A stretch of 64,000 nt of DNA from assembly GCA_044892525.1 (NCBI GenBank), contig CM097887.1:20398001-20462000 (forward strand), given 5' to 3'. A program made the position numbers and the translations under genes. Numbering within the stretch: the first letter of the stretch is position 1; each line of letters opens with the position of its first letter. Below are positions 37,199-37,899 of this stretch, piece by piece. A model generated the notes under the pieces. It was not told the origin of the DNA and did not search any database. It saw nothing but the letters and a program-made list of their open reading frames with translations. The stretch comes from Schmidtea polychroa (taxonomy: Eukaryota).

Positions 37199-37266
<68 letters not shown>

Positions 37267-37899
37267 TTAGGTAAAGAATTTTACAATAACAAAGTTAAGC
37301 AAATCCTCGATAAACTGAAAATAAATCACTACTCGGTACATTCTCAATACAAAGCTGCCCATGTTGAAAGATTTAATCGAACATTGAGAGATAGATTAAA
37401 GAAATTATTCGTGCATCAAGGTAATAAAAAATGGGTAAATGCTTTACCGAAAATAATAACAAGTTATAATCATTCATCACATCGAGGACTGAATGGATTG
37501 AGACCGGTTGATATTACATCAAAAACATCATTGACTTCTAAAAAATCTGTAAAAATTGCAAAATCTAAATATAAAGTCGGTGATCGTGTTAGAATTAGTA
37601 AAATTAGTGCATCACCATTTATTAAAAATTTTGATACAAATTGGAGTGATGAAGTCTTTGTAATTTCAAAAATAAATACTAAACAGAATCCTGTGATGTA
37701 TGTCATCAAAGACAGTGATAATAATATTGTACAAGGGAAATTTTATGAGCAGGAATTACAAGTCATTCCTCCTCCAAAAGTATTTAGAATTCAAAAAATA
37801 TTGAAAACTAAAAAGGTCGGCAAGGATAAACAATACTATGTCAAATGGCATGGTTATCAAAACCCGTCATGGATATCAGAAAAGGACCTAGTAAAGTGA
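36811..37899 (+). CDS. Retroviral-like (rve) integrase with C-terminal chromodomain; 72-nt intron at 37199-37270
   Basis: WQMD, LQTD|LGKEF, HVERFNRTL triad; YKVGDRVRIS; QYYVKWHGY...SWI chromodomain. The ORF track starts at an upstream ATG (36754). Confidence 0.95.

Follow-up and report, generated by a model that had tools for sequence, protein, structure and literature searches.

The integrase gene of a Polinton/Maverick-type element, located in the 64,000-nt stretch of DNA analysed here (the window), is interrupted right after its second catalytic Asp by a 72-nt insert composed of GT, 22 perfect ATT units and TTAG. With a probability of roughly 0.72, we read this insert as an ordinary short spliceosomal intron, which would have been gained at an AG/GT proto-splice site and whose AT-rich body would later have turned into pure ATT; such an intron was most likely inherited within one sub-lineage of Polinton/Maverick integrases, the surrounding genome being AT-rich and of animal type. 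We infer both the splicing of the insert and the mechanism of its origin. The initial annotation of this DNA had already called the insert an intron, and the assignment now gains indirect support, at the level of sequence, from relatives that break at the same point, from purifying selection, from an apparently family-wide insert and from other short intron candidates in these elements.

The insert, the interrupted gene and its host element

The insert occupies positions 37199-37270 (forward strand) in phase 1, bordered by ...GATTTGG upstream and GTAAAGAA downstream; its composition, length and position next to the second catalytic Asp are as first described. The donor GT is the sole GT in 37180-37215, and the acceptor AG is the first AG past the ATT tract. 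The flanks, which had been noticed as near-duplicated, contain direct repeats of 8 nt that differ at one position (7/8 identical); the left copy (37194-37201, forward strand) contains the donor, G/GTATTA, and the right copy (37266-37273, forward strand) contains the acceptor, TTTTAG/G. Because the duplication of any AG/GT site yields GT...AG ends for free, such ends are no proof of function. The acceptor is similar to those of the other intron candidates of these elements, and the donor GTATTA resembles the GTATAA found in the related locus L004; it looks weak against the general donor consensus. The putative intron body, a perfect (ATT)22 tract (37201-37266, forward strand), is predicted to be unstructured as RNA, with no pairing within the tract and 200 of 200 shuffled sequences folding at least as well. 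Its unit count is given as assembled and may be wrong, as the window belongs to a gapped assembly with two N runs. Tandem ATT seeds were absent from the 30 nt on each side of the insert.

Two putative exons surround the insert. Exon 1 (36811-37198, forward strand), taken from the ATG of MEKIW and with a further in-frame ATG upstream at 36754, was assigned by alignment and by a match to Pfam rve (E=1.4e-5) that lies under the gathering score as a half domain; exon 2 (37271-37899, forward strand) holds the catalytic Glu, the C-terminal region and a chromodomain (about 37786-37890), with matches to rve_3 (E=0.004) and Chromo (E=8.7e-5) that are both under gathering. The catalytic codons D1 (37012-37014), D2 (37192-37194) and E (37366-37368) correspond to residues 68, 128 and 186 from the ATG at 36811, when the tract is included. 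The unspliced frame, open from 36751 to 37899, reads QTDLG-I22-LGKEF and bears out the earlier claim that the insert is a multiple of three, stop-free and translatable as a 22-Ile tract within a D-(57)-E arrangement.

A search for integrase relatives returned 892 proteins, and the best 120 full-length ones were all contiguous at the insert site (insert absent in 120/120). Among these, the D2-E spacing was 33 in 111 and 34 in 5, the remaining 4 being missed by the pattern and uninterrupted at the site. The insert contributes 24 extra codons, and 57 - 24 = 33 is the family norm, so that it exactly covers the difference from the relatives; the arithmetic by which splicing had been said to restore a D-(33 aa)-E core holds, with the refinement that 33, not 35, is the norm among relatives (111/120). 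One relative, P0001, passes Pfam rve, the predicted fold of an uninterrupted relative matches retroviral intasome integrases, and in alignments with integrases of solved structure the QTDxG motif falls on their second catalytic Asp. Insert-free relatives exist at 72-78% identity to the window's integrase, and none of the 80 fetched loci (80 of 116 loci compared) was interrupted at the site. Furthermore, a gapped pattern for a GT...AG insert of 35-95 nt at the site had no match in JGI metagenomes, and viral contigs gave no match to the integrase protein, the alignment or the donor-side motif. A separate 89-aa piece, 70% identical to the integrase (P0161), appears at NCBI as Salmonella enterica sequence, on a contig of 266 nt, and likely represents contamination.

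The integrase sits in a Polinton/Maverick-type cassette that comprises an end motif, a TBP-like gene, an A32-type ATPase, the integrase and capsid-like genes. The probable left end of the element (33080-33120, forward strand) is marked by the one AGTAGTAG found, a motif which we take to be typical of Polinton ends. A right end was not found, with no CTACTACT within the window, which reflects truncation of this copy and says nothing about the family; the truncated copy shows one end motif only, and neither a second terminal inverted repeat nor a target duplication. The TBP-like gene (34986-35477, reverse strand; Pfam TBP, E=3.3e-13) is placed head-to-head with the ATPase gene in the window and on the same strand as the integrase in several related loci. 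The packaging-ATPase-like gene (35626-36199, forward strand), detected by tblastn, is split over three frames, and its intact relative in L006 passes Pfam Pox_A32. Beyond the integrase, broken remains homologous to ORFs of ~350 aa in related loci (37896-38735, forward strand) presumably represent a minor capsid gene, to judge by position, and are followed by a major-capsid-like gene (39075-40111, forward strand), recognized by homology, that spans three frames, has lost an internal stretch and ends where similarity to related loci stops. The capsid labels are in part our own assumption; as a lead, the intact L009 relative of the major-capsid-like gene lies near a cluster in which 30% of members have a DJR-like domain. 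No long ORF for a protein-primed DNA polymerase B was present in 33080-40111, the copy being truncated on the right. The window's copy is a decayed fossil: with its ATPase and capsid-like genes broken and no right end, it cannot itself show function, and it is the family that must.

Long perfect ATT tracts are limited in the 64 kb to two, of 22 and 23 units, both in this element; the second is a perfect, non-coding (ATT)23 tract (33643-33711, forward strand) downstream of the stop codon of a small gene. The near-equal size of the two tracts possibly reflects assembly-limited repeat lengths. The small gene itself (33795-34413, reverse strand) is predicted to have three exons, separated by two 47-nt AT-rich GT-AG intron candidates (34394-34348 and 34171-34125), and its frame is broken by a stop codon in the window's copy. 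A weak homologue in L068 carries a 46-nt intron candidate (622-667) that ends in (ATT)5-TAAG, and the weak homologue in L007 (about 1200-1820, reverse strand) carries none, which would suggest intron gain or loss in this small accessory Polinton gene between the window, L068 and L007. In L004, another GT-AG candidate, of 40 nt (376-415) and with the donor GTATAA, is placed at a Gly codon of the TBP-like gene; the window and L006 are uninterrupted at that codon. By eye, these 40-47-nt candidates are alike only in AT-richness and short ATT runs. Indels that the intron screen of close loci returned in variable minor-capsid-like ORFs were discarded, and a decayed second copy of the small gene (31069-31432, 76% identical), located beyond the left end of the element, is uninformative.

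Several other features were observed elsewhere in the window. Remains of a Gypsy-like retrotransposon (47959-60014, reverse strand), with gag, protease, RT, RNase H and integrase recognized by eye, include long extra ORFs at 50498-53205, one of them Cys-rich and envelope-like by eye. A DUF659 transposase fragment (28527-29375, reverse strand; E=7e-39) is presumably hAT-like, a weak match to Endonuclease_7 next to an N gap (25388-25954, reverse strand) may belong to another Polinton polymerase, and two matching tandem arrays with a 122-nt period (20399-20702 and 21062-21365) lie 663 nt apart.

Relatives interrupted at the same position

The first relative search could show uninterrupted ORFs only; N- and C-terminal pieces were then sought separately. 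This yielded 11 short N-terminal integrase proteins, 8 of which are at least 70% identical to the window; four of these eight (those other than P0121, P0122, P0123 and P0125) end elsewhere. P0122 (75% identical) ends in QTDLG-KIII and a stop, a tail shared by the cluster member P0133 (74%), and P0123 (74%) terminates with QTDLG-N and a stop. P0132, a cluster member 97% identical to the window, leaves the integrase at the same Gly with the tail INIIIFIIELKGFTMIL before its stop (G-INIIIFII...). Stops are thus encountered inside the insert after 1, 4, 4 and 17 codons in P0123, P0122, P0133 and P0132, respectively, and Ile makes up 3 of the 4 tail residues in KIII and 7 of 17 in P0132. At the protein level, the position of the insert is kept in P0132, P0122/P0133 and P0123 while the tails diverge. 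The tail of P0132 could be a mis-join; its reading as frame-shifted exon 2 was rejected, exon 2 not being among its best matches.

Using the last 150 residues as query, the two best of 28 matches were P0151 (JGI, contig of 3759) and P0152 (Logan, contig of 1550), both 71-72% identical to exon 2. Each shares its source and contig size with one of the truncated N-terminal proteins: P0151 with P0122 (3759, JGI) and P0152 with P0123 (1550, Logan), a pairing made by source and contig size alone and compared at the protein level. These pairs are most simply read as two lineages that both carry, at the same Gly, a phase-1 insert in which a stop follows early; identity to the window is ~75%, and identity between the two lineages is 74%. 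The rough chance that two of eight close short proteins end in one 3-residue slot is 0.008, and that three of eight do so is 0.0003, figures to be taken with the caveat that kin are not independent.

Other candidates were not counted as introns, namely P0125, which ends at QTDL, P0285, P0291, and P0121 (ENA, 97% identical), a deletion derivative in which the protein skips in frame from the intron-site Gly to the HGY Gly close to the C-terminus. Nor were seven distant NCBI spider gene models (P0217, P0221, P0233, P0255, P0202, P0218 and P0296) that depart at QTDA(G) into other Polinton genes, which we read as gene-finder joins at a donor-like site. These models suggest that gene finders take the QTDA(G) motif for a strong splice donor and thereby create false fusion proteins in databases.

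The exon-1 tree of 68 rows placed all interrupted rows inside one starred set of 19, along with 12 rows from uninterrupted proteins. The interrupted rows form two well-supported groups and the best trees need 2 changes and do not unite them in one clade; a single clade appeared in 6% and 27% of bootstrap trees in two analyses, one of which omitted two rows, and by the AU test such a clade is still acceptable (p=0.25). The sequences would agree either with a single gain followed by losses or with parallel gains.

Whether the insert extends across the family was addressed with contigs of four runs from four studies, aligned to the integrase gene with the repeat itself left out. The integrase family is very abundant, with 17,926 records in run X1, and is represented by only 17 records in run X14, whose study differs from that of the best-matching run. 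Adjoining records of run X14 overlap by 30 letters (records 11/13 and 14/16). Its sole left-side record extends 38 letters beyond the last aligned base, and both right-side records begin 20 letters early; without an insert, 14 letters separate these bases, and a 44-letter overlap would be needed against the limit of 30. At least 28 letters must then lie between the bases, that is, an insert of at least 14 nt, and a contig that enters a long ATT run is expected to break off after 38-39 letters. The argument draws on a single run, taking k to be 31 and the records to be unfiltered. This contig arithmetic, from one run outside the study of the best-matching run, indirectly excludes the empty site as the main family form. 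The insert is probably not private to the window's decayed copy, and we infer that it is present in most copies of the family. The initial annotation had made its proposal depend on presence in sister copies, and both the run X14 arithmetic and the same-Gly breaks in relatives point to such presence.

Variants among sister copies bear on the state of the gene. The best-supported 40 of 136 variant rows were listed, of which 27 fall in the ORF, so that they are preselected and not independent; 18 of these 27 are synonymous, compared with 20-26% expected. Restricting the set to variants with a share below 85% in run X1, 16 of 22 are synonymous versus 26% expected (p=7e-6), with no stops, and the synonymous fraction of segregating variants is 6/10 upstream and 10/12 downstream of the insert. 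These proportions suggest that both exons are under purifying selection among sister copies, which supports the intron indirectly. Selection on the downstream half is hard to reconcile with an insert that had killed the gene, unless the variants come from insert-free subfamilies.

Origin of the insert and alternative readings

The codons for the conserved x-G-K-E-F residues after the second catalytic Asp would often spell AG/GTAA, a proto-splice site. The empty site of L001-L003 reads TTA GGT AAA, which conforms to AG/GT, and other loci use different codons; the proto-splice site named earlier as G/GT fits, since these three are the closest fetched intron-less loci. A small duplication of AG/GT with AT-rich filler, for example during double-strand-break repair, could have created donor and acceptor at once, and as both splice sites would be supplied by the duplication, we propose that the insert was removable without protein change. 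The K of the KIII tail may be a duplicated exon codon, giving the donor GTAAAA. The filler might instead derive from the tail of a truncated retro-element. The intron body would then have been free to drift, and slippage in the window's family would have turned an ATT-rich body into pure ATT. The Ile-rich tails of relatives suggest such an ATT-rich precursor, purified later in the window's family, and the non-coding (ATT)23 tract shows that runs of this kind grow in this element. Of the earlier proposal that the intron was either born or overwritten by microsatellite expansion, the second half fits these data; birth by expansion is unlikely, given that no ATT seed is present in the exon and that the inserts of relatives start with other AT-rich sequence. 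The consensus core of a branch site is U-x-A, and ATT units would still supply this minimum together with a U-rich stretch before UAG. The normal product would be a spliced mRNA encoding a D-33-E core, and retention would give a faulty protein in the window's copy and a truncated one in relatives, as a by-product and not as a switch.

Alternatively, the insert could be poorly spliced, having been left at a fragile site by DNA repair or by a retro-element, such as a truncated non-LTR element of which only the repeat tail remains next to its target duplication. Such a scar would have made the integrase of one subfamily non-functional, and the subfamily would then have spread by means of the integrase of insert-free copies. 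We consider this reading rather unlikely. It would account for the GT...AG ends, which follow from AG/GT duplication, and for the broken ATPase and capsid genes of the window's copy; the deletion from the same Gly in P0121 indicates that the spot breaks in other ways too, and the insert-free relatives at 72-78% identity could have served as helpers. Conversely, the synonymous excess on both sides of the insert suggests an integrase protein under selection while the sister copies diverged, and the same break point is followed by conserved downstream halves in two ~75%-identical lineages, a coincidence whose rough chance, computed as if kin were independent, is low.

Two further readings keep the intron and give its body a role. 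According to one, which we regard as distinctly unlikely, the integrase of a high-copy animal Polinton lineage depends on the host spliceosome through a pure-microsatellite intron whose repeat length tunes splicing, and with it the integrase output of each copy; if true, repeat length would act as a mutable dial that sets each copy between integrating and remaining in place, and the intron would be a naturally occurring minimal one, with almost no information outside its ends. According to the other, put forward in the initial annotation as a poly-Ile on/off switch and in our judgement quite improbable, retention is regulated or tuned by repeat length and gates the supply of integrase. Such a switch would agree with the weak donor, the unstable repeat body, the location inside the catalytic core and the open unspliced frame, which introduces a very hydrophobic stretch beside D2 (19-residue hydropathy of 4.5 at the tract versus 1.04 elsewhere). 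The structure model with the tract has a pLDDT of 40-43 over residues 121-160 (mean 62), compared with about 80 over the same region (mean 79) in the model of an uninterrupted relative at similar alignment depth; the retained product is probably inactive, as far as models that report low confidence and not loss of activity can suggest. However, the read-through frame is not conserved, all four interrupted relatives with a tail stopping 1-17 codons into the insert, and the frame in the window follows from its 3n+6 letters, as a trinucleotide body plus 6 nt stays open with no selection needed. Nor does the body hold any regulatory motif or structure. In the P element of Drosophila, retention of the transposase intron IVS3 removes activity, under tissue-specific regulation and with a functional repressor as product; for the Polinton insert, no counterpart of this regulation or of the repressor product is shown. 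The switch is thus left unsupported.

A copy-specific microsatellite or assembly artefact in a dead element is very improbable: the gapped assembly, the decay of the copy and the restriction of the two long ATT tracts (22 and 23 units) to one element would favour it, but the run X14 arithmetic suggests that the main family form carries 14 nt or more at this site, Ile-rich tails occur at the same place in P0132 and P0122/P0133, and the exon flanks lack an ATT seed.

Significance and comparison with known systems

Core genes of animal Mavericks are usually taken to lack introns, and annotation pipelines read such inserts as decay. If the ordinary intron favoured here is real, the Polinton lineage would be transcribed and spliced in the host nucleus, and inheritance of the intron within the integrase core would mean that some integrases taken as broken are intact. 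A pure-ATT intron in very many copies would constitute a natural series for the effect of minimal intron sequence and length on splicing, and from these copies it could be learnt whether a given proto-splice site acquires introns more than once.

Among titles and abstracts in the literature available to us (without Repbase reports and most subscription papers), none dealt with an intron within the integrase of an animal Polinton or with an intron consisting wholly of microsatellite, and the accessible parts of three reports (PMC8502044; bioRxiv 10.1101/2023.08.22.554363; PMC12220804) mention no spliceosomal intron in the integrase. The element resembles the animal Polinton/Maverick elements and adintoviruses, as far as these are covered in the parts seen of PMC8097293, bioRxiv 10.1101/2022.07.12.499685 and PMC8502044, in its rve integrase with C-terminal chromodomain, its A32-type ATPase and its capsid-like genes, as well as in the decay of most copies while core genes are under purifying selection. 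Unlike them, the window's element has a core gene apparently split inside the catalytic domain: in the sections consulted, the core genes of intact vertebrate Mavericks are described as intronless (PMC8097293), and nematode Mavericks as having introns in cargo genes only (bioRxiv 10.1101/2022.07.12.499685).

Introns are described in the integrase-like DDE transposase genes of Ginger1, which have 1-4 mostly GT-AG introns, some at conserved positions; these are, however, cut-and-paste DNA transposons that do not encode capsids, and the accessible text describes no microsatellite body (PMC2836005). Regarding the mode of gain, the excerpts at hand report introns that arise at AGGT through tandem duplication, the insertion of transposons or the repair of double-strand breaks, donor and acceptor being formed together (PMC3443670), and Daphnia neointrons that often have direct repeats and show parallel gains at one site (PMC4202315). 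The present insert shares with them its short length, its AG/GT position, the short direct repeat at its borders and possibly parallel gains; those gains occurred in host genes, whereas here a mobile-element gene would be affected and the body is a perfect trinucleotide run. Finally, dinoflagellate maverick-polinton-like elements carry introners, a repeated transposon family mostly gained after integration, according to the parts of PMC11957031 available. Both cases would place spliceosomal-type introns in Polinton-like elements, and the one described here differs in that a single position is apparently inherited by a lineage and in that no introner sequence is apparent.
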